From the IMG/VR virus record IMGVR_UViG_2663763232_000016: a DNA stretch of 10,031 bases; one strand, 5' to 3'. The notes beneath the pieces were generated by a model. That model was not told the origin of the DNA, ran no database searches, and saw only the letters and a program-made list of their open reading frames with translations. This document shows positions 1 to 10,031 of the stretch, one piece after another (positions within the stretch are counted from its first letter, which is position 1; each line of letters opens with the position of its first letter). The DNA comes from a virus. Lineage: Duplodnaviria > Heunggongvirae > Uroviricota > Caudoviricetes. The translations under genes and the position numbers were made by a program.

Positions 1-360
1 TACTCTGCCAGCCTGACCAACTTCACTTCGTCAATACGGTTCTCGCTATACGCTTACCGTACAAAAGCACTAGCTCTGGCTGAACTTTATAAAGCTAACG
101 AGGTTGCAGCCGATGACAAAATTGGTGGTCGTAAGGTGGAAGTAACCGGAACTGTACAGGACATAACAAAAAATTTCACGGATGATGTAGTTCTTAAACT
201 TGAAAGCGGTAATCGCTTCATGCCAGTCAGTCTGAGTATGTCTGATTCAGAAAAGGCGAAAGCGTCGAAATTGGAAAAGGGCCAGAAGATCACCGTGACT
301 TGCGAAAAGATGCAGTTTTTCATCGGTGCACCGTCTGGCGGAAACTGCACCTTTAACTAA
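1..360 (+). CDS. C-terminal part of an OB-fold (tRNA_anti-like / BOF-type) protein; gene start lies upstream of the window
   Basis: Frame 1 is open from base 1 to TAA at 358-360 (the ORF track shows only the part from GTG 136). The translation ...ELYKANEVAADDKIGGRKVEVTGTVQDI...KGQKITVTCEK has the spacing typical of small OB-fold proteins. Family call is pattern recognition only. Confidence 0.55.
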   Translation, partial: YSASLTNFTSSIRFSLYAYRTKALALAELYKANEVAADDKIGGRKVEVTGTVQDITKNFTDDVVLKLESGNRFMPVSLSMSDSEKAKASKLEKGQKITVTCEKMQFFIGAPSGGNCTFN

Positions 361-375
361 TCTGTCATACGGTCT

Positions 376-394
376 GCCGGGTAAAATTCCCGGC
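376..394. repeat. Hairpin-forming inverted repeat GCCGGG-TAAAATT-CCCGGC just after the OB-fold gene stop; no adjacent T-tract
   Basis: Perfect 6-bp arms read directly from the sequence, 16 nt downstream of the TAA at 358-360. A terminator role is not supported by a U-run. Confidence 0.3.
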
Positions 395-1653
395 AACTCA
401 TCTACCCCACCTCATGGATGTCCCTGCTATTTGACGATCCAGCTTACATGCTCTTGCTGAAAATATCTTACGGCTCTCTGGGCCAGGTGCCTGACGTGAC
501 AGACGATCCCTCAATAATTTCTTATCTTCTTGCTGAAATATCGCAGAGCCGACAGGCCCAGTAACGTATTTCACCACTTCATCCCGTAGAGCATCACAGC
601 AGGGAAAACTTGCCGCAATAGGGCATTCTACTGTTCGTTTTCTGGTCTATTTAACATAATGGTTCTTATAAGTACTTGACTGGAATGGTCAGGTATTACT
701 TTTCGGAACGTTGACGCGAAGCTGGGTACACAACAGCGATTTCACCAACAGAAGGAAAGCATTCAGGAGGATTCGAGGTGAGTTCTCTTGTTCAAGGATT
801 TTGGATGAGTTTGCCTGGTCACCACACAATTTCAGGTTTCAGACCTTTGAGGCTGCCAGTGTGTCAAACGCCATAAAAGCACTTTTTTCTGTTTACCAGC
901 AGACACAAAGCCACTACACCGACGTTACCACAACGGGCTGAAGGTCTGCCATCACCTGGTGATATTCACGAGCCTGACCGCCACTGTTTCGTACCATTTC
1001 CCAAAACAATGTAAACAGCCAACCCACCAATCCCTTCTACGCTCCACCAGAAGCGCTACAGTGCGTTATCCCCCCAGATGTAAACTGACGTACCGATAAT
1101 CCACGACATCCCACAGCGCGATACAGGAACCACCAGAGGACATCTGTTTTAGTTTTAATGTGTCTTTTTTATTTTTTGTAAAAAGATGGTTCAGAAAGTG
1201 GGTTGTGTTTAGCACCCATTCAATTGGCGGATTCGCCTAGGCCGCGCCATTACTGGCTTCGCTGCATGCACCACACCATAACGCCCATAGGTACAAACTT
1301 GTGATTTGTACGTTTAGTGACCACTTTAGCATGATTAACTACGGATTATAGGCTATTTGAGGTGTATTTAATCTACTTTGTTCGCAGGATAGCCAATGAT
1401 AAAGATCATCCACCAAATTTTCACAGAAAACTAGTATAGGGTTGCCAATCTTCAGCCAGCGCGGAGAATGGTCGGTATTTTCAGATGAAAGCGGGGGAGG
1501 GAGATGATCAATTCTCGGAGCGGATCAGGTGCCTGGACCGCCTCAGGTGTTGCCGTCGATTGTGCCATTGAAGCATGACGCGGACATATCAAACCAGAAG
1601 TTTTCATCGGTGCGTTGGTCGCTTGGATGACTTGGAAAATTCTCACCCGGTGA

Positions 1654-1743
1654 TACCTGCACGATTTTCGTGTACCCACCCCCTCGATTTTCGAGCACCT
1701 ACCTGCACGATTTTCGAGTAGGGGGTAGTCGATTTTCGAGCAC
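1654..1743. repeat. Iteron-like array: four direct repeats of core CGATTTTCG(A/T)G, organised as a tandem ~46-bp duplication, followed by an AT-rich tract
   Basis: Core copies start at 1662, 1685, 1708 and 1730 (spacing 23, 23, 22 bp, about two helical turns). Units 1654-1699 and 1700-1745 are near-identical except the centre (CCCACCCCC versus TAGGGGGTA). AT-rich run AATAATAATAAATAACAAT begins at 1744. Confidence 0.6.
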
Positions 1744-2246
1744 AATAATAATAAATAACAATCTCCATAAAAGAACTGATAAGAAAAGTACCTCCAGGTC
1801 GAGAGCACGGAATGACGGTTGGTCATTCTGTTAGTTTTAATAGTGATGCTTCTGCATCGCTCCGCTCTGCAATGGCTGGTCAGCCACTTCAGATATGTTT
1901 GTGGTAAGAAGCTCACCTTTGCTGACGTGAAACAGCCGCGCCATCTCGTGACCTTCTAACCCTCGTTAACACATCGCTACGCTCTGTGACTCGGGTAACC
2001 CGACAGGCTACGCCAGAGAGCTACGCTCTCACTCTGTGTGGAAGCTGCGAACTTGTTCGCCATATGTGGATCGGAGCACGGCGGAGAGGACTGCTTTGCA
2101 TCTGTCCGGTTCACTCCGGGGCGGCGCGGGTTGTCTAACTGACTTCCTCAGCGCCTCTCTACGGCGTTTAAATGGTGTGGGTAACACGATGGTACTGCTA
2201 TAACGACGAGTCCCCGCAGAACGCGTCACAGAACGATCTAGCACTA

Positions 2247-2275
2247 TTGACAAAGATTTTTTAAACTTGTAATGT
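2247..2275 (+). promoter_or_regulatory. Sigma70-like promoter TTGACA-17-TAATGT
   Basis: -35 TTGACA at 2247-2252, 17-nt spacer, -10 TAATGT at 2270-2275; lies upstream of the cluster beginning at 2492. Confidence 0.45.
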
Positions 2276-2317
2276 TATGGTGATTATTATGCATTATAAA
2301 ATGCTACATGATAATGA

Positions 2318-2346
2318 TTGCTATTTACAAACAAATCTGATACAAT
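2318..2346 (+). promoter_or_regulatory. Sigma70-like promoter TTGCTA-17-TACAAT
   Basis: -35 TTGCTA at 2318-2323, 17-nt spacer, -10 TACAAT at 2341-2346; about 145 nt upstream of the ATG at 2492. Confidence 0.45.
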
Positions 2347-2491
2347 AGATTTTAGTAGGGTAATGATTTACCTACGAATCCTCGAATAATTCTGCCGTCA
2401 TCACGACATTCCTTGTCAACCTCACGGCATTACAAAATGGGTTACAAATAGAACCTCCGCGAATAATTCTTTTAACAGAACGGAGAACCCA

Positions 2492-2938
2492 ATGAATAAA
2501 CCAAAATCCCAACGTCTCGACCTGACCACTATGACAGGCGAGCAGATCGCTGATCTCATCCTGAACGGCAAATACACCAAATCAGCTTTGTGGGCCTTCA
2601 TTAGTAGAAACGGCGGGGCAGACGCTGTACATGCTCGACTTCCTCAGATCGCCGTCTGCCTGCAAATCCTGAAGCAGGCGCGGAAGAAAGCGAAGCAGGC
2701 ACGAGTGGTTAAGACGGTGCTGAAGCCTCTGAGCAATAAATATGCTGAGGGTAATTCCTTAACGCAAATCCTGAATCCTGTGTTACAGGGCTACCGCGAG
2801 CTATATAGAGAAAAACTGAATCTGGACCTGACACCAGAACAGGTGATCTTGCTCTTGATCGCCACTGATGGTGTGGAACGTCTGGAATCCTACGGTTACA
2901 CCTGTGCGGGTGACTTCCCGACCGCAACCGCAGTCTAA
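2492..2938 (+). CDS. Hypothetical protein, 148 aa, first gene of the cluster
   Basis: ATG at 2492 preceded by GGAGA at 2482-2486 (5-nt spacing); TAA at 2936-2938. No family recognised. Confidence 0.8.
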   Translation: MNKPKSQRLDLTTMTGEQIADLILNGKYTKSALWAFISRNGGADAVHARLPQIAVCLQILKQARKKAKQARVVKTVLKPLSNKYAEGNSLTQILNPVLQGYRELYREKLNLDLTPEQVILLLIATDGVERLESYGYTCAGDFPTATAV

Positions 2939-3025
2939 CAACACTGAACAAAACCTGAGCCGGTTCGCCTTTGGGCGACCACTGGCGGGAGGTCTTTTGT
3001 ACCTAAAACGAGGAGGACAACTTGA

Positions 3026-3229
3026 ATGAACATCAAATTTCAACAGCACGTTTATCAGGCTCTACTAGCTGAGGCCAAAAGGCAGGACAAGCCCCTGGCA
3101 CGGCTCTGTAATGAAATCTTGGAGACTGCCGCGAACATTTTCGACAACACACCAGACATCAAACCAGCATTAGCCAGCAAGGCGACACTTTACGGAGAAC
3201 AGAATGAGCAAACAGAACCGGGACAGTAA
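3026..3229 (+). CDS. Small DNA-binding protein, ribbon-helix-helix-like (CopG/Arc/ParG-type fold suspected), 67 aa
   Basis: AGGAGG at 3011-3016, 9 nt before ATG 3026. N-terminal short strand (NIKFQQ) followed by two predicted helices (HVYQALLAEAKRQD / PLARLCNEILETA) matches RHH layout. Not confirmed by search. Confidence 0.7.
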   Translation: MNIKFQQHVYQALLAEAKRQDKPLARLCNEILETAANIFDNTPDIKPALASKATLYGEQNEQTEPGQ

Positions 3230-3950
3230 GGATTTTGTAAAACTTGAATACAGCATTCTCGACCTTACCGAGTACAACGGCCTGACCATTAATGGCAACA
3301 TGAAAATTTTGCTATCTCTGGTTTACAGCTATGACAAAACAGGCAGAACTTATTACGAGTCTGTTGGCATGATTGGTAAACGTTGCGGCTGCAAGCCCGA
3401 AGCCGTTCGTAATTTCAGGAACAAGCTTCGTGAAGCGGGAATGATCACTTTTGAGGAAGAGCAGGGGAGAACACACAAAATTTCTCCGGTCGAACTCGAT
3501 CCATCGTTGATGGTTTTTCTTGACGATCATAATTCCACGCAGGTGAGTAATAGAAAAGTGGAAACCGAGGAGAGCGGTAAGAATGAGCAGAAACGTGATG
3601 TGGAATCTTTCGTGGTGGAACCTGCCGCGCCTGTTGCTGGAAAACCAGACGGCCTACCTGTTGTGGATATTCCTGTCGATGCTGATGTACCTGCCAATGA
3701 TGATGCGGTGAACGCTTCTGATAGGTATACCGATGAACAATTAGGCACCAAGCTGAGGCGATGGCGCAATTGGGGACTGGATGAAGAAGCAAAAGCGTTT
3801 TGTCTCTCTCATGGTATCAGCAGCGATGAGGACAGCATGAATCTGTTTATTCAAAATTATCATGTACCCGCACCGGAGTCAGTAGAACAACAGGTTAACG
3901 CCCCAGCAGATGAGCTGCCGCTTGATTATGATGACTCGATCCCTTTCTGA
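3204..3950 (+). CDS. Protein with N-terminal winged-helix-like DNA-binding domain (resembling replisome-organizer / replication-initiator N-domains) and an acidic, low-complexity C-terminal half, 248 aa
   Basis: GGAGA at 3194-3198, 5 nt before ATG 3204; the start overlaps the 3-prime end of the RHH gene by 26 nt. Segment KILLSLVYSYDKTGRTYYESVGMIGKRCGCKPEAVRNFRNKLREAGMITFEE looks like helix-turn-wing. C-terminal half is rich in D/E/P. Confidence 0.8.
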   Translation: MSKQNRDSKDFVKLEYSILDLTEYNGLTINGNMKILLSLVYSYDKTGRTYYESVGMIGKRCGCKPEAVRNFRNKLREAGMITFEEEQGRTHKISPVELDPSLMVFLDDHNSTQVSNRKVETEESGKNEQKRDVESFVVEPAAPVAGKPDGLPVVDIPVDADVPANDDAVNASDRYTDEQLGTKLRRWRNWGLDEEAKAFCLSHGISSDEDSMNLFIQNYHVPAPESVEQQVNAPADELPLDYDDSIPF

Positions 3951-3964
3951 TACTGGAGGAATAA

Positions 3965-4486
3965 TTGTGTGATGTTGCCAACAGCCTGACGGCTGAAACC
4001 CTTACGGTGCGAAGCACTTTACCAGAGGTAAACAAATCCGGTGCTGACGCCCCTGATTTGTCCCGTTTTTACAAGGCCCGCTCTCGTGATACCTCGTTGA
4101 TCGAGACTGCTAAAAAAATGCTCGTTCACGGTTACACCCCAGGCAAAACGGCGCTGCTCCTACGCTTGCCGTATGACCTGGTAAAAGGCCTTTACGATAA
4201 CTCGTGGAATCCTCGCTGTCGCAAGATAAGTAATACCAGTCAGTACGCTACTAAGCGAATGGCCCGAATGTACTACGAATCCGGCGCAATGCTGGCAAAA
4301 ATCTGTGCTGACCTTCAACTGCCTCTATTCACTGTGGTAACGCTGCTCAAGCGTGAAGGAATCACTGAAAAAGAAATGGCATCTCGAATGCCTGTTAGTG
4401 ATGATCCGTTGTTCATTGAGTACCGGAAGACTATTTCACGCAAGCAGGCAGCGCCCCAACGCCGATCACCACGACTGCATTATTAA
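3965..4486 (+). CDS. Hypothetical protein with two HTH-like segments, 173 aa; start codon uncertain
   Basis: ORF runs from TTG 3965 to TAA 4484-4486; GGAGGA at 3955-3960 sits only 4 nt upstream. HTH-like stretches: SLIETAKKMLVHGYTPGKTALLLRL and GAMLAKICADLQLPLFTVVTLLKREG. GYTPGKT is not a canonical Walker A motif. Confidence 0.65.
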   Translation: MCDVANSLTAETLTVRSTLPEVNKSGADAPDLSRFYKARSRDTSLIETAKKMLVHGYTPGKTALLLRLPYDLVKGLYDNSWNPRCRKISNTSQYATKRMARMYYESGAMLAKICADLQLPLFTVVTLLKREGITEKEMASRMPVSDDPLFIEYRKTISRKQAAPQRRSPRLHY

Positions 4487-4600
4487 TACCCCAGCCGGGG
4501 AAACTTGACCCTATTTGAATATTTATCCTTTCTGCCGTTAGCGGTAGCTGTTCTCCAATGGCTTCGTGACGGCCTGGACCTCTACAGGAAACATAACAAT

Positions 4601-4933
4601 ATGAATAACATTGAAGCAATCCGCGCCAGTATCCGGGAAGCAATGACCGCAGGAACAGACGAACCGGAAGATCTGAACAAATCCGCTGAAGAAGCATTGG
4701 CGGAGGCGGTGCAGAGTTACCTGTCCGCTTCGACTGCAACAGCCAGCGAGCCAGCCCCAAAAAGTGGTAAAACCATCAAGGAAAAAGGGATCGCTCTGTG
4801 CCACCAAGCCCAAGGTTATAGCGCTAATCTGCGTCCGGTAAGTCTCATGATGAAGGCAAGTCTTGATGAGCTAACACCTGAACAACGCGCCGCGCTTGAG
4901 CGTCTGGGTTACGATATCAATCAGGGGGTGTGA
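4601..4933 (+). CDS. Hypothetical protein, about 110 aa from ATG 4601; the in-frame TTG at 4505 would add 32 hydrophobic residues
   Basis: AGGAAA at 4585-4590 lies 10 nt before ATG 4601. The TGA stop at 4931-4933 overlaps the ATG of the next gene (TGATG). Alternative longer ORF from TTG 4505 as given in the ORF track. Confidence 0.6.
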   Translation: MNNIEAIRASIREAMTAGTDEPEDLNKSAEEALAEAVQSYLSASTATASEPAPKSGKTIKEKGIALCHQAQGYSANLRPVSLMMKASLDELTPEQRAALERLGYDINQGV

Positions 4934-7074
4934 TGTCTGGCACAAATAAGATTGTTACCAGCACCGTTAATGAAATCTCGTGGATCACAGACGATGCCTC
5001 ATATCAAAAAGCCAAAAAGAAGATTATCTCGCTTAAGGCTGCTCATGAGAAACCAGCTAAAGCGCTTGAGAAGGCCCAGAAGCGGACCGTCCAGAGTGAA
5101 GGCAAAGCAGCACTAGCCGCAGCGAAAGCCCAGACAGCGAAGCTACGCCAGGCTGAACAATTGTCAAAACAGCAACAGAAACAAGCTCAGATACAAGCCA
5201 AAATGGAACGGGATGCAGTCTCCCACGCTAATAAAATGACCTCATTACAGGCGCGTCAGTTATCCCAGCAGGAACAGGCCGCACGGCAGAATGCCAGACT
5301 AGCAGCGATATCTGACAAGGTGAGACAGGCGAGTCGCTCCCGTGCAATGACCTACAATCCCAACATGCCTGGAGTTCACTCCGATCCATCTCTGGTGGCA
5401 CGTCAAAATGCAGCGATGAACCGTGGTCACGGCGCTGTTGCTGCTGACATCGCAGCCACCAAAAAGGCGATGGCCTTGGAGGAGAAGCGTCAGCGTGAGA
5501 AAGAGGCAGGCCTTAAGCGCGAGGTGACTTATTACAACAGTTTGCGCCGTAGCGCTCTGACTCTGGCAAACGTGAACGGCGCTGACGTTGCAACCCGGTA
5601 CAAAGCCATCAGTGCAGCAAAAGAGGCACTTAAAGCCCAGAAAGAAGAGCGCTATACGGTTGAAGAGACCCGCTTCGAAATGGCTCGTATCACCACCGAA
5701 TTACGCAAGCAGGCTCGTCTGCAACAGCGTATGACCCGTGAGCAGAAAGCCGCAGGTGTTCGTGCTGGTCGTGTACGCACAGAAAGCCGTGGTGGTAGAG
5801 CTGGTCTTGCAGCTGCTGGTGTTATTGGTGGTGCGTCGTTAGTGGGTAGTATGGGCGTTTCTCGTGTCGGTCAGACCCTCCAGGGAAGCCTTGAGCGCTC
5901 TCGCGATGTGAAAAAACTCCAGCAGTACGGGATCAGCAACCTTGAGTTCGCTGCACTTCAGGATCTCTCGATGAGCCGTGTTGGTTACTCACTGAGTGCT
6001 GACAAGCTGGCTGACCTCAACAAGGACACAACCGAAAAGGCCGGGGAATTGTTAAACACCGGCTCTTTCAAACGTAACAAGAAAACTGGACAGGTGAATT
6101 TCAGCGGCGGTGGCGAGTTCGCAGATATCATCAACAATGTGCTGACCTCCACCAACGGTAACCAGAAGGTAGCACAGAAGGTGATCGGAGAACTGCAAAA
6201 GCTGGATTTTCCGACCTTCATCACTTACCTGAAACAGTTGCAGAAAACTTTCAAATGGACGGACAACCAGACCCGGCACCTGGCTGAGGCTGTGAATGAT
6301 GGTTCGGTCTTCCTCGAAGTGTTCAATGATGAGGGGCAGGGACTTATCCAGCGTATGCATCAACTCTCTTCTGAAGGATGGACCCTATCTGATGCGCAGC
6401 AAGCCAACCTCGATAAACTGGCGGCGTTAGGTGCTGAGTACAACCGAGTGCAAACCAGCCTTGCAGATCATTTCTCAGCCTCGTTTGTTGAAGGCCTGGG
6501 GCAGTACGCTGCCAATACTGAAACTCTACGTCAGAAGATGACTGGACTGATCCCAATTTCCGATGCCCTCGGCGTTGCCCTTGGTGAGCTAACCACCAAC
6601 ATTCTCTCCTTCTCTGGTCGAGTCGGTGAAGAACTTAAGAAAGGCGCGACATTGCCGGATGCGGTGTATGCGAGCGTGGTAGATGAATCTGCAAACGGTG
6701 CTGCCGATTGGATTAAGGAAAAGACAGGCTTTGATCCACGTAGCATCGGTCAGACGCTTAAGCAGATTTACCCGTGGCTGGATAGTTCAGCACCGAGCAA
6801 TATTGGCTCAGGCACGGCGTATAACGATCCAGCGCTAGCGTTGAATGTTCCTAGCCTGAACTATCTGACACCCCAGCAACCGACGTTTACGGTTCCGACA
6901 ATTGACAGCATGACGCTGCGACAGCCGATTCCTGTCAGTGTTACCGGGCAAGCGAACATTAATCAGCAGATGGATGTGTTTGTCCATGACGATAAGATCG
7001 CAGGGCTGGTTGATACCAAGATAAGGGAGAACAACCACGCGCAGAATAACCTCATCCTTGGGATTGCAGACTAA
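4933..7074 (+). CDS. Large protein (about 713 aa) with N-terminal A/K/Q-rich coiled-coil region, central glycine-zipper hydrophobic segment and a C-terminal domain of about 400 aa; function unknown (virion structural, scaffold-like or tape-measure-like are possibilities)
   Basis: ATG 4933 coupled to the upstream stop (TGATG) with AGGGGG at 4923-4928; a GTG at 4930 is the ORF-track start. TAA at 7072-7074. Hydrophobic segment GRAGLAAAGVIGGASLVGSMGV. No P-loop or catalytic motif recognised. Confidence 0.9.
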   Translation: MSGTNKIVTSTVNEISWITDDASYQKAKKKIISLKAAHEKPAKALEKAQKRTVQSEGKAALAAAKAQTAKLRQAEQLSKQQQKQAQIQAKMERDAVSHANKMTSLQARQLSQQEQAARQNARLAAISDKVRQASRSRAMTYNPNMPGVHSDPSLVARQNAAMNRGHGAVAADIAATKKAMALEEKRQREKEAGLKREVTYYNSLRRSALTLANVNGADVATRYKAISAAKEALKAQKEERYTVEETRFEMARITTELRKQARLQQRMTREQKAAGVRAGRVRTESRGGRAGLAAAGVIGGASLVGSMGVSRVGQTLQGSLERSRDVKKLQQYGISNLEFAALQDLSMSRVGYSLSADKLADLNKDTTEKAGELLNTGSFKRNKKTGQVNFSGGGEFADIINNVLTSTNGNQKVAQKVIGELQKLDFPTFITYLKQLQKTFKWTDNQTRHLAEAVNDGSVFLEVFNDEGQGLIQRMHQLSSEGWTLSDAQQANLDKLAALGAEYNRVQTSLADHFSASFVEGLGQYAANTETLRQKMTGLIPISDALGVALGELTTNILSFSGRVGEELKKGATLPDAVYASVVDESANGAADWIKEKTGFDPRSIGQTLKQIYPWLDSSAPSNIGSGTAYNDPALALNVPSLNYLTPQQPTFTVPTIDSMTLRQPIPVSVTGQANINQQMDVFVHDDKIAGLVDTKIRENNHAQNNLILGIAD

Positions 7075-7158
7075 AATCATCGTTCCGTCGAAAATGGCGC
7101 AGCAAATTGGCCCACACGAGAGAGGGCCGTTGAATTCGCCATGTTATTGTTTTTGTTG

Positions 7159-7187
7159 TTGCAAATGATAATCATTCGTGTTAAAAT
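7159..7187 (+). promoter_or_regulatory. Strong sigma70-like promoter TTGCAA-17-TAAAAT with extended -10 TG
   Basis: -35 TTGCAA at 7159-7164, 17-nt spacer, TG at 7179-7180, -10 TAAAAT at 7182-7187, set in an AT-rich stretch; predicted start near 7195. Confidence 0.4.
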
Positions 7188-7243
7188 AATATACAAGGTG
7201 AATTACAACAGCCAAATGTTTTCCCTTCTCCTTAGGAATCAAA

Positions 7244-7270
7244 GTGCGCTTTTCCCAGAGCGCCTTTTCT
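7244..7270 (+). terminator. Weak intrinsic-terminator-like hairpin about 50-75 nt downstream of the 7159-7187 promoter
   Basis: GCGCT (7246-7250) pairs with AGCGC (7259-7263) around an 8-nt loop, followed by CTTTTCT (7264-7270). Short stem, so low confidence. Confidence 0.3.
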
Positions 7271-7532
7271 CATACAGCCAATATTCGCACCCTCTCACGG
7301 TAAGGTTAGGCCATTGCCGCTGGCTGTATCAGAAAAGATTTTCTCCGACCTTGGATCGGGGATTTGCCAAAGCCTTTCATCCTCGGAAGGCCGTCTTGCC
7401 AGACGAAAACTGGCATTGAGTGCGGCAGCGAAGATATGAGGTCTCCCGCTGCTGTGCTCCCTCATTCCTGAAGCGTGACCCGCCGATCATGCTTTCCAAA
7501 TCTCTCCATCAGAAAATACCATCGTGAAGCTA

Positions 7533-7552
7533 TTAGCAACGCATGTTGCTAA
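7533..7552. repeat. 20-bp palindrome TTAGCAAC-GCAT-GTTGCTAA (candidate operator or RNA hairpin)
   Basis: Perfect 8-bp inverted arms with a 4-bp spacer, read directly from the sequence; sits between the promoter at 7159 and the terminators at 7595-7678. Confidence 0.5.
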
Positions 7553-7594
7553 CCCGTAAACGGGTGAATTTCATCATCTCCGATGATCTACCAA

Positions 7595-7629
7595 CCGGGG
7601 CAGGCGTTTTCCTGCCTCCGGCTCTTTTT
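7595..7629 (+). terminator. Rho-independent terminator (about 10-bp stem with one bulge, then CTCTTTTT)
   Basis: CCGGGGCAGG (7595-7604) pairs with CCTGCC-T-CCGG (7611-7621) around loop CGTTTT; T-run at 7625-7629. Confidence 0.5.
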
Positions 7630-7654
7630 CTGTTGGGAATACAAATAAAAGAAT

Positions 7655-7678
7655 GCCGTCCGATGGACGGTATTTTTT
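7655..7678 (+). terminator. Rho-independent terminator (GC-rich stem CCGTCC/GGACGG followed by TATTTTTT)
   Basis: Stem 7656-7661 pairs with 7665-7670 around a 3-nt loop; T-run at 7673-7678; 40 nt upstream of the capsid-pair start. Confidence 0.6.
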
Positions 7679-7735
7679 CAACACAACCCGGCATATTCGC
7701 CGGATTATAAAAATTGCATGGAGATACAACAAAAT

Positions 7736-8080
7736 ATGGCATTCGAACATGAAAGCAAAACCCCACAGGATGTATTGGTTTATACCGATAGCCCGATCTT
7801 TCATAAGCGCACCGTGATCTTTGATCTGGCTGCTGATGTGACTTGTGGTGATGTGATTAACCCGACCACTGGCGCGGCATACGTTGCAGCCGATGCTGAT
7901 AACTGTGCTGTAGCTCTGCAAAATCAAATCGCTGGTGATGCCCGTAGCCTGGTCATTTCAGACCGTGGCTGTGTGTTCAATCCATCTGGTCTGGTTGTAG
8001 CGGCTGCTGCAAAAGATGCTGCTTACGCTGCCCTTGTTAAGCAAGGCAACCGCATTGCTGACGCAAACACTGCAATCTAA
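7736..8080 (+). CDS. Putative head decoration protein (lambda gpD-like size and composition), about 114 aa; alternative start ATG 7718
   Basis: ORF from ATG 7718 to TAA 8078-8080; the second ATG at 7736 has GGAGA at 7720-7724 (11-nt spacing) whereas 7718 has no Shine-Dalgarno. Small Ala/Gly-rich protein directly upstream of a capsid-sized gene; segment TTGAAYVAADADNCA resembles lambda D TDGAAVGILAVAADQ. Not confirmed by search. Confidence 0.7.
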   Translation: MAFEHESKTPQDVLVYTDSPIFHKRTVIFDLAADVTCGDVINPTTGAAYVAADADNCAVALQNQIAGDARSLVISDRGCVFNPSGLVVAAAAKDAAYAALVKQGNRIADANTAI

Positions 8081-8098
8081 TCAAGGAGTGATAACAAT

Positions 8099-9115
8099 AT
8101 GAAATTAAGTGATTTTACTAACCTTTCCGGTCAGTTTGTGAAGCCAAGCGGCGAGGGGTTCCTTCTGTCCAGCCTGGGGATCTTTACCAGCCGTCCAAGT
8201 GATACGCAAATCATCGCGCTCGACACACTGGAAGATGTGCAGCGTGAAGTGACCAAATCTGTTGCCCGTTATGGTTCTGAAATGTCCGGTCTAAACTTCC
8301 CTAAAGCGGCTAACGTGACTGTTCAGGCTCCACTGCATGTCTACAGCTCAACCATCACCAGCCAGGATTGGCAGGGGAAACGTCAGCCGGGAACAAATCG
8401 CCAGATGACCGCTGAAGATGTAGTTGCTAATCATACCCTGAAGCACTACCTGCAAACCCGCCGTGATGTTGAATATGCCATGGCGCAGAGCCTGCTTCAC
8501 AATACTGTAGAGGCGACACACCTTCGTGAAGGTCCTGATCTGAACTGGCAAACCTTCTGGGGTATTAACCAGCCGTCTGCTGTGGTGAAAACTGGCATCA
8601 GTGCCAACGTTATTACTGAGATGCAGAACGCTGTCACGCTGCTGAAGAAAAATCTGGGTGGCTGGTCTTCCAGCATCAAGCAGGTTTATCTGCTAGCGAG
8701 TCCGAGTCTTTTCACCGCCATTCAAGGCAACCCAACCGCATATCAGGCGGCTCTGTTTGGTGCTACGTCCCGTGACATCATTTTCCCTGACACTTTGGGC
8801 GCATATGATCGATACAACATCGGGCGCGTAACTGTAGTTCAGGTTGACGATCCGCTATACGGCATTGCAGATGGTGAAGGCTACATGCTGGCGACGTTCT
8901 CCAATGTTGTTGAAGGCGACCTTTCACCTTATATGACTTACCAGACTCCGGCGAGCCGTCATGCTGACGTTGCTAATGGTCCGGTTTATCCGTCTTACCA
9001 TTACGTTCTGCGTGATAAGTTCATGAATTATGAGGTGGTCAGCGAGCTATCACAAATTCAGATCCCAATGCGTCCAGACTTCGTTTTGAAAATTACGATG
9101 GATGACGCGGCGTAA
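8099..9115 (+). CDS. Putative major capsid protein (lambda gpE-like / HK97-fold class suggested by size and synteny), 338 aa
   Basis: AAGGAG at 8083-8088, 10 nt before ATG 8099; TAA at 9113-9115. Length close to lambda gpE (341 aa), directly downstream of the decoration-like gene, about 50 percent GC. Family call is from context and size, not from detectable identity to lambda E. Confidence 0.85.
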   Translation: MKLSDFTNLSGQFVKPSGEGFLLSSLGIFTSRPSDTQIIALDTLEDVQREVTKSVARYGSEMSGLNFPKAANVTVQAPLHVYSSTITSQDWQGKRQPGTNRQMTAEDVVANHTLKHYLQTRRDVEYAMAQSLLHNTVEATHLREGPDLNWQTFWGINQPSAVVKTGISANVITEMQNAVTLLKKNLGGWSSSIKQVYLLASPSLFTAIQGNPTAYQAALFGATSRDIIFPDTLGAYDRYNIGRVTVVQVDDPLYGIADGEGYMLATFSNVVEGDLSPYMTYQTPASRHADVANGPVYPSYHYVLRDKFMNYEVVSELSQIQIPMRPDFVLKITMDDAA

Positions 9116-9177
9116 GACAGCGTATTTTGGGGGCGCATTGCCCCCGCTGCAGGCGAGCCAAAGGAAAGGAGATACAT

Positions 9178-9390
9178 ATGAAATTAGCTTTGATCGGTAC
9201 TGGCAACATGCCGCTGATGCAGTGGATTCTAGATGGCAAGGGCGATGATGCGATTATCAACATGTCAGCGTTAGCACGCAGGCTTGAGTGTAGTCGTTCC
9301 AGCCTACTTGACCGCATCCATACGCATGGATTCGACAGCGCTATTAGGTACTACCTCAACGAACAGCGACAACGAAAACTGAAAACATGA
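9178..9390 (+). CDS. Small protein with HTH-like segment, 70 aa (the ORF track shows a longer version from 9127)
   Basis: AGGAGA at 9167-9172, 5 nt before ATG 9178; TGA at 9388-9390. Segment INMSALARRLECSRSSLLDRIH looks like a helix-turn-helix. Function unknown. Confidence 0.55.
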   Translation: MKLALIGTGNMPLMQWILDGKGDDAIINMSALARRLECSRSSLLDRIHTHGFDSAIRYYLNEQRQRKLKT

Positions 9391-9391
9391 G

Positions 9392-9416
9392 AGCCGGGTT
9401 AATCCCGGCTTTTTTT
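9392..9416. terminator. Bidirectional rho-independent terminator shared by the capsid transcription unit and the convergent minus-strand gene
   Basis: Perfect 7-bp stem AGCCGGG / CCCGGCT around loop TTAAT, flanked by an A-run upstream and TTTTTTT at 9410-9416. The stop codon of the minus-strand gene lies in the loop. Confidence 0.75.
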
Positions 9417-10031
9417 ATGTACTTTGCTGAAGTCAAAAAGATTGTCAAATTTAATGATATCTAATCCAGAGATAGCGTGATTAACATCTTTCATCATTGC
9501 GCCATGTTCATCATAAGCGTTACGTATTGCCATGAATTCTTCTGGTGTTATCTGTGCTTTAAGCAAAGCCTGCATGATGAGAGTCATCAGTTTTGAGATG
9601 GCTATTTGCGTATTACCAGAAGATCGAAGAAGGGCGTTGAATGGCTCCCAGGAAACCTTTTTAATCAGAACATTATAGTGACTTAACTTGATGAAAGAGC
9701 TACCAATGCGAAAGGTATTTTCCGTCATATCTTTCAAGGATTCTTGAATATGATAATAGCTTTCTTCGTCGGCTTTTTGTCCTGATTTCGCCAGTGTGTC
9801 GAGAAAAGTCATAATGCGGTTTAAGTCAAAGCGCATACGATTGTAACGGCTTCTGGTGCTATCAATTTCTTCTTTAAGAGCGATTGCTGAATCAATTGCC
9901 CGCTCCATTTTTCTCGTCTTCACAATCTCCTGAAGTTTAACCCCTCCGAAGATGACGCCGCCAACCACACTCAACGCTGTTACAGCATTCGAAGCGATAG
10001 AGATAATGTTATCCCATGCTTGTAAATCCAT
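9399..10031 (-). CDS. Membrane-anchored protein (N-terminal transmembrane helix plus helical soluble domain), at least 210 aa; possible moron / superinfection-exclusion or abortive-infection candidate; may extend beyond the window
   Basis: ORF ends at TAA (complement of 9399-9401); its ATG is the last three bases of the window, so the true start may lie outside. Hydrophobic segment IISIASNAVTALSVVGGVIFGGV near the N-terminus. Local GC is about 34 percent in a hand-counted 100-nt sample versus about 50 percent in the capsid gene. Confidence 0.8.
   Translation of the reverse strand: MDLQAWDNIISIASNAVTALSVVGGVIFGGVKLQEIVKTRKMERAIDSAIALKEEIDSTRSRYNRMRFDLNRIMTFLDTLAKSGQKADEESYYHIQESLKDMTENTFRIGSSFIKLSHYNVLIKKVSWEPFNALLRSSGNTQIAISKLMTLIMQALLKAQITPEEFMAIRNAYDEHGAMMKDVNHAISGLDIIKFDNLFDFSKVHKKSRD

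Follow-up and report, generated by a model that had tools for sequence, protein, structure and literature searches.

The DNA analyzed here, a stretch of 10,031 nt from IMG/VR record IMGVR_UViG_2663763232_000016 that we call the window, begins inside an open reading frame. This raises the question of whether an intact gene is simply cut by the window edge or whether the frame has another origin. Frame +1 contains no stop between base 1 and the TAA at 358-360 and encodes 119 residues; a run of 119 sense codons is expected by chance with a probability of (61/64)^119, or about 0.003. In a profile search, the product matched Pfam family PF12869 ("tRNA_anti-like," an OB fold) over residues 20 to 107 with an E value of 1.6e-14 and 54.1 bits, compared with a cutoff of 23.5. 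The match confirms the OB-fold product proposed in the initial annotation. A search of NCBIfam profiles found no family for the fragment.

An insertion sequence end at the left edge of the window

The same gene is present in an intact form elsewhere in Escherichia coli. By megablast against complete E. coli genomes, the chromosomes of AREA_C483 and TC24 were 100% identical to the window from 54 to 10031 only, and the matching gene in both is a 753-bp coding sequence annotated as "OB-fold protein" (WP_128361333.1; 250 amino acids). In an alignment with this intact allele, window bases 1 to 53 were unrelated to the upstream part of the gene. When bases 1 to 70 were searched alone against complete E. 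coli genomes, they matched the extreme end of an IS66-family element just past tnpC, with 100% identity over 1-57 or 1-58 in seven genomes. An IS end at least 99% identical to that of the window occurs in only 7 of 5,426 complete E. coli genomes. Bases 54 to 57 (TTAC) are ambiguous and match the IS end and the gene alike; it is because of this coincidence that BLAST identity to the intact allele begins at 54. The features at the left edge are as follows.

1-57, + strand: right end of an IS66-family element, equal to the last 57 nt of a 2,440-bp tnpA-tnpB-tnpC element (100% identity in 7 complete E. coli genomes).
1-16, + strand: last 16 nt of tnpC (...T L P A) in frame +2, with the stop TGA at 14-16; the annotated tnpC ends at position 3516 of loci L003 and L004, which corresponds to window 16.
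36-57, + strand: right terminal inverted repeat of the IS, ACGGTTCTCGCTATACGCTTAC; read as its reverse complement (GTAAGCGTATAGCGAGAACCGT), it agrees with the IS left end (GTAAGCGTACAGCGCGAACCGT) at 20 of 22 positions.
58-65, + strand: right copy of the 8-bp target-site duplication, CGTACAAA; the same 8 bp directly precede the IS left end in LLYM01000007.1 (locus L105, 3712-3719).
58-360, + strand: 3' remnant of the OB-fold gene, codons R151 to N250 of the 250-codon intact allele plus the TAA at 358-360.

We set the ends of the IS by comparing two independent insertions and taking the limits of identity between them: the copy in uidC of strain MS 115-1 (L004) and the copy beside an MBL-fold hydrolase gene of strain 97.3 (L003). 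The reference element is 2,440 bp, with tnpA, tnpB, and tnpC annotated in both of these identical copies. Its left end reads GTAAGCGTACAGCGCGAACCGT..., its right end reads ...ACGGTTCTCGCTATACGCTTAC, and the copies are flanked by 8-bp target duplications, CACCATTC and TTTCTTTT. The assignment to the IS66 family agrees with the features of that family. The terminal repeats begin with GTAAGCG, seen as CGCTTAC (the reverse complement) at window 51-57 and directly at L105 3720-3726. The tnpA-tnpB-tnpC arrangement and the length of 2,440 bp are found in the identical reference copies, of which the window holds only the last 16 nt of tnpC. An 8-bp duplication is present at both reference sites and also here (window 58-65 and L105 3712-3719), assuming that both contigs derive from one insertion event. 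We saw no unusual feature in this element. Its tnpC lies on the + strand, in the same direction as the OB remnant.

Since bases 1 to 57 are identical to the IS right end, the open frame is made up of 19 fortuitous IS codons followed by 100 gene codons. The first 19 codons are thus a chance extension of the frame across the IS end, out of phase with tnpC, and gene-derived sequence begins only at base 58, not at base 1 as the initial annotation had it. The remnant retains conserved cysteine codons at 301-303 and 346-348. Its start codon, ribosome-binding site, signal peptide, and N-terminal domain are all missing, and the window copy is a pseudogene fragment.

The other half of the split gene

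We predicted that the 5' half of the gene joined to the left end of the IS would read ...D-D-A-I-Y-R-T-K, with a stop within the GTAA of the IS. The predicted product was found in the 90%-identity cluster of the full-length protein, as a 165-amino-acid protein (P0289, KUH22422.1). It is encoded on a 3,778-bp contig, LLYM01000007.1 (L105), of E. coli assembly GCA_001484485.1. This contig holds the first 153 codons of the OB gene, and the product ends in ...IYRTK. From rcnR through the integrase gene to OB-gene codon 153, L105 has 0 mismatches with the intact island in 3,719 nt. At its end, CGTACAAA is joined to the first 59 nt of the IS that is also seen in the window; the window, in turn, starts with the last 57 nt of that IS, and CGTACAAA comes next. 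The exact IS/gene junction was not found in species-representative genomes or in JGI metagenomes.

L105 and the window look like the two sides of one insertion, an assignment made by exact fit and not by provenance. That both carry the same 8 bp, CGTACAAA, next to opposite ends of the same IS points to a simple IS66-family transposition, with an 8-bp duplication, into codons 151 to 153. The best explanation of window 1-360 is very probably that it is an IS66 insertion junction at which an OB-fold gene was split and that the copy in the window is a pseudogene fragment. The initial annotation described a gene cut by the window edge. The frame is indeed open from base 1, but the gene itself was interrupted by the IS66-family insertion at codons 151 to 153. 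We conclude that this is an ordinary IS-disrupted accessory gene of a family that is known and annotated, although functionally uncharacterized. In annotation, the stretch is better recorded as an IS66 end plus a pseudogene fragment than as a partial gene.

The window starts 57 nt inside the IS, and L105 stops 59 nt inside the same IS. Short-read assemblies break within repeats. The positions of these breaks suggest that the window start is the end of an assembly contig caused by the IS repeat. At the other edge, window end 10031 falls exactly on the ATG of a minus-strand 210-amino-acid open reading frame (9399-10031).

We weighed this insertion against other origins of the frame. That the gene is intact, with its 5' part merely beyond the window edge, would agree with a frame that is open from base 1 and with a domain match that is real. 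We consider it extremely unlikely, given that bases 1 to 57 are an IS66 end unrelated to the upstream sequence of the gene and that the complementary junction was found on L105. Moreover, in identical copies of the IS, frame +1 meets a stop 18 nt upstream of window base 1, and the sole upstream start in frame, a GTG at -8, has no obvious Shine-Dalgarno sequence before it. The initial annotation had named a stop of this kind, in frame and close to the window edge and without a plausible start, as evidence against its own reading, and for the frame as read, judged in the identical IS copies, this is what we found. A further possibility is that the IS end abuts the 3' half of the gene through an IS-mediated deletion or inversion, or as a solo IS remnant, with L105 coming from a different strain. 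The window by itself shows one junction only, and an IS5 insertion in the same gene (locus L006) does come with a 1.08-kb deletion to its left. Such a rearrangement is nevertheless improbable, because L105 has the exact complementary junction, with the same 8-bp duplication, the same IS, and 0 mismatches in 3,719 nt, and because both contigs break 57 to 59 nt inside the IS, as expected for an assembly break at a repeat.

It could also be asked whether the chimeric frame is expressed, from the GTG at -8 in the IS or from an internal GTG at 136, to give an OB-fold fragment that stays in the cytoplasm and has taken on a new function, for example, nucleic acid binding. On paper there is a chimeric open reading frame of 122 codons, tnpC has the same orientation and its transcription could continue past the IS end, and analogous IS5-OB chimeric open reading frames are called as proteins in many assemblies. 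However, neither GTG is preceded by a Shine-Dalgarno sequence, and the internal 74-amino-acid product is not on record in the protein collection. When the chimeric fragment was used as the query of a homology search, all matches were truncated or partial relatives, and the chimera itself was not among them. A fragment with no signal peptide would also leave the conserved cysteine pair in the reducing cytoplasm, and the IS interrupts the C-terminal domain within its first strand. These observations make expression of the chimera very unlikely, and we retain the reading of a gene split by a simple IS66-family transposition.

The intact protein has two predicted domains and a signal peptide-like N terminus

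The initial annotation had described a small protein; the intact product is 250 amino acids long and has two domains. Its N terminus reads MKKILALPLMFFSFSSFS/EG and starts at a TTG located 5 nt past a GGAGG; the start codon at the same position in most relatives is ATG. Judged by eye from the sequence, this N terminus resembles a Sec signal peptide in its pattern of charged, hydrophobic, and small residues and has no lipobox cysteine. The hydrophobic N terminus typical of PF12869 proteins is, judged in the same way, present in the intact allele and in 24 aligned relatives. The window copy does not have it, the IS having removed everything before codon 151. Full-length relatives (113 at E values up to 1e-3) were found in Enterobacterales only (Enterobacteriaceae, plus Pantoea and Edwardsiella) and have signal peptide-like N termini. 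Four cysteines, one pair per domain, are invariant in the 24 aligned relatives, a pattern that would fit an oxidizing periplasmic location.

AlphaFold predicted an N-terminal helical domain of about 100 residues (roughly 30 to 130), with a pLDDT above 90 for residues 31 to 130 modeled alone. No informative structural relative was found for this domain. The C-terminal domain was predicted as a beta-barrel with a pLDDT of about 75 to 85 and has the five-stranded OB barrel that characterizes PF12869. Because the IS break falls within the first strand of this domain, the window retains nearly the whole barrel but no export signal. A full-length relative (P0001) scored 60.1 bits against PF12869. 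The domain is carried by 2,205 cluster representatives at 50% identity, typically in the order N-terminal membrane helix, linker, and OB domain. The intact gene is thus a member of a large, almost unstudied family of exported OB-fold proteins.

A family profile search of PDB sequences found nothing at E values up to 1. Fold comparison gave 3F1Z as the best structural match, the 154-amino-acid KPN03535 of Klebsiella pneumoniae, a secreted OB-fold putative lipoprotein; the link comes from fold comparison alone, and the KPN03535 gene is itself listed with a PF12869 match. The two proteins differ in several ways. KPN03535 is only 15% identical to the E. coli protein and consists of one domain with a lipobox (LSGC); the N terminus of the E. 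coli protein has no cysteine. The KPN03535 gene adjoins a cpxP-like chromosomal gene and is not island cargo (PMC2954213).

The OB gene is part of a moron-like cassette in an integrase-bearing island

The gene is carried by an island of about 15 kb that has integrated into the thiM TPP riboswitch and is bounded by 71-bp direct repeats. The island has genes for an integrase, a DnaD/HTH_36-like replication protein, a 714-amino-acid protein, and a major capsid protein, and the OB gene lies between the integrase and replication genes. The island spans the window, and its 71-bp repeats, which are 96% identical copies of aptamer sequence, lie outside it (L001, 2803-2873; L005, 17734-17804). A complete riboswitch is rebuilt before thiM; 69 nt separate the other aptamer copy from the island integrase gene downstream of it. 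The 714-amino-acid protein (window 4930-7074) has weak PHROG similarity to tape measure proteins only and no Pfam domain. The major capsid protein (window 8099-9115; 338 amino acids) matches PHROG 29 and, weakly, Phage_cap_E. No portal or terminase gene was evident within the window. The island may be a phage satellite of an unclassified kind.

Every context of the OB gene that we examined is an integrase-bearing island, and the stretch that varies among islands runs from the integrase gene to window position ~645. A gene for a 69-amino-acid secreted protein lies divergent from the OB gene. Sister islands at tRNA-Gly keep the 69-amino-acid gene and have no OB gene, and backbone homology resumes in them at window ~381-400. 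This distribution indicates that the OB gene, together with its own upstream region and the hairpin that follows it, behaves as a cassette of about 0.95 kb that is either present or missing as a unit, like a moron. Morons of lambdoid phages are self-contained promoter-gene-terminator units located between backbone genes. The OB cassette resembles them in its presence or absence between the 69-amino-acid gene and the backbone, in the GGAGG 5 nt before the TTG, and in having a hairpin exactly at the boundary of the insertion or deletion. It differs in that the hairpin has no U-tract of the kind found in typical moron terminators and in that the carrier is a 15-kb island with a capsid gene and not a complete prophage.

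The 69-amino-acid protein (minus strand; L001 5165-5374, L012 7632-7841, and L097 6523-6732) has a signal peptide-like N terminus and two conserved cysteines and belongs to PHROG 4641 (unknown function). Its gene is found together with the OB gene in E. coli, Enterobacter, and Klebsiella, and a 72% identical copy is present in the sister islands with no OB gene. We had considered it as an obligate partner of the OB gene, an idea that is weakened by its retention in those islands. In Enterobacter and Klebsiella, the OB module adjoins a RosmerTA antiphage defense pair (RmrT, 1.4e-57; RmrA, 3.9e-144, HTH_3/Peptidase_M78) within an integrase island. The pair is located at 5728-7508 in L012 and at 4728-6508 in L102 to L104. 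These islands also carry a resolvase gene and either a DUF4145 gene (Enterobacter) or a ParA-like gene (Klebsiella). In L008, other genes occupy the corresponding position of the island, and neither Pfam nor PADLOC profiles matched them.

The OB gene has been inactivated independently at least twice, by IS66 at codons 151 to 153 and by IS5 near codon 124. In the IS5 allele, the insertion is at a CTAG near codon 124 and is accompanied by a 1,079-bp deletion to the left (L006 6294-7489, CP056396.1; also the contig start of L011). This allele is widespread, occurring in CP056396, in KTE108 (WP_016247352.1), and in well over 100 contigs. The resulting IS5-OB chimeric open reading frames (proteins P0279 to P0287) have been called by gene callers and deposited as "OB-fold protein." Frameshifted or otherwise truncated versions of the OB gene also exist. 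In one Enterobacter genome, another IS66-family element (L014 5275-7587) adjoins the 69-amino-acid/OB module, which is undisrupted there.

A conserved hairpin marks the 3' edge of the cassette

The strong hairpin reported after the stop codon is present, 15 to 16 nt past the stop. Two features describe this region.

375-395 (extendable to 371-398), + strand: hairpin TGCCGGG-TAAAATT-CCCGGCA, with a 7-bp G+C-rich stem (375-381/389-395) and a 7-nt loop, at the right edge of the OB cassette.
396-475, + strand: C-rich, G-poor stretch, with 25 C and 12 G in 80 nt; the GC skew for 301-600 is -0.18.

The hairpin core folds at -12.9 kcal/mol, and the 66-nt region has a z score of -2.66 relative to shuffled sequences. 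An intrinsic terminator consists of a G+C-rich stem-loop, which is present here, and a run of T residues after the stem, which is not; the stem is followed by ACTCATCTACCCC. The lack of a T-tract was correctly noted in the initial annotation, and a terminator scan makes no call at this position. The hairpin is therefore not a canonical intrinsic terminator. Distant homologs (Cedecea and Erwinia) have ordinary stem-plus-T-tract terminators instead.

The sequence TCATAC-N-GTYTGCCGGGTAAA(A)TTCCCGGC follows the stop codons of homologs in Phytobacter, Scandinavium, and Enterobacter nearly unchanged. The last codons of these genes vary at synonymous sites, whereas the hairpin is nearly constant. At the DNA level, the E. 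coli and Enterobacter loci are homologous up to window 398-411; homology with the sister islands that have no OB gene resumes at ~381. Since the hairpin is conserved along with the gene and Enterobacter homology stops at 398-411, it is a conserved part of the cassette at its 3' edge. The stem does not vary among the loci that carry it, and no covariation therefore speaks for an RNA role over a DNA role. The hairpin might form the 3' end of a self-contained promoter-gene-hairpin cassette. We lean, tentatively, toward a role of the hairpin in defining or protecting the 3' end of the mRNA, perhaps together with Rho action on the C-rich stretch that follows, and away from a classical intrinsic terminator. 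From base composition we infer that 396-475 resembles a Rho utilization site.

A canonical intrinsic terminator, AGCCGGGTTAATCCCGGCTTTTTTT, is present at window 9392-9417 (hairpin 9392-9410, then TTTTTTT) between the convergent genes 9127-9390 (+) and 9399-10031 (-), and it has the same 6-bp stem sequence as 376-394. We considered the GCCGGG...CCCGGC hairpins at 376-394 and 9393-9409 as a shared protein-binding motif and set this aside, the second being an ordinary terminator with T7.

A possible relationship of the intact protein to Sie2009

What the intact protein does can be approached through its family. The intact allele matched PHROG 8545, "superinfection exclusion Sie-like," at an E value of 4.6e-22 over residues 139 to 250. 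In Lactococcus phage Tuc2009, sie2009 is located between int and cI2009 (PMC7693887). The only gene between int and cI2009 in Tuc2009 is orf2, which matched PHROG 8545 at 7.4e-79 and PF12869 at 4.6e-11. By BLASTP, the E. coli protein and Sie2009 aligned over 42 residues with 38% identity. Sie2009 is reported to block phage DNA injection (PMC7693887, PMC4155818, PMC10883804), and it is the only member of the PF12869 family with a phenotype reported in cells (PMC7693887, PMC10883804). The two proteins share PF12869 and PHROG 8545, a C-terminal OB domain behind a hydrophobic N terminus, and a gene located beside the integrase gene of an integrated mobile element. Sie2009, in contrast, acts in a Gram-positive host and is a 172-amino-acid protein with a membrane-associated hydrophobic N terminus; in the E. 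coli protein, the signal peptide appears to be cleavable, and a helical domain of about 100 residues is added.

Our best guess, a tentative one in which the label comes from shared family membership, is that the intact protein provides Sie-like superinfection exclusion or a block of DNA entry. In the proposed mechanism, the protein would be exported to the periplasm, where its cysteine pairs would form disulfides, and it would act like Sie2009 to block the entry of incoming phage DNA, to the benefit of the carrier island. In the genome from which the window derives, this exclusion function would have been lost. Taken together, export, disulfide formation, and a Sie2009-like block of DNA entry are possible but fall short of probable.

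About equally likely is an unrelated binding role in the periplasm. The intact protein would then not be an exclusion factor at all but a periplasmic ligand- or nucleic acid-binding protein or an envelope stress protein, similar to KPN03535, NlpE, or TcdC, that rides on mobile islands. The best structural match, KPN03535, has been proposed to bind nucleic acid or to act like NlpE or in a Cpx-related role (PMC2954213), and TcdC, which has the same Pfam domain, is reported to bind G-quadruplexes in vitro (PMC3575817). No PADLOC model matched the OB protein or its E. coli neighbors. On the other hand, all contexts that we examined are integrase islands, several of them beside RosmerTA; phage homologs are located in lysogeny modules; and the one in-cell phenotype in the family is that of Sie2009 (PMC7693887, PMC10883804). 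A tblastn search of 50,697 phage records found a single homolog, in the P2-like Burkholderia phage Carl1. Its gene shares a strand with the immunity repressor gene, from which it lies two genes downstream, and an annotated terminator comes after it.

Returning to a Sie2009-like function, a bolder and on balance rather unlikely extension is that, with the intact allele, the lactococcal Sie2009 blockers would have their first periplasmic counterpart from a Gram-negative host, a two-domain secreted protein borne as a moron-like cassette on a capsid-encoding, satellite-like island in the thiM TPP riboswitch. Its repeated knockout by IS elements (IS66 here and IS5 in a widespread lineage) would then reflect either a cost of carriage or a switch in the helper or target phage. 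Should the E. coli protein indeed exclude phages from the periplasm, a mechanism that has so far lacked an explanation in lactococci would become tractable in a Gram-negative model.

A gene-free stretch downstream of the remnant

The approximately 2.1 kb of the window from 361 to 2491 have no annotated coding sequence in any RefSeq copy, and from ~645 onward they are conserved at ~86% in sister islands of many E. coli strains. Only short, unsupported open reading frames are present, the longest at 1452-1916 on the minus strand (154 amino acids). Rfam and tRNA scans of the window found nothing. Within this stretch, at 1654-1743, are four tandem repeats of ~23 bp with the core CGATTTTCG(A/T)G and spacings of 23, 23, and 22. 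These repeats resemble iterons, and the DnaD/HTH_36-like protein encoded at 3204-3950 could use them as an origin or an operator array.
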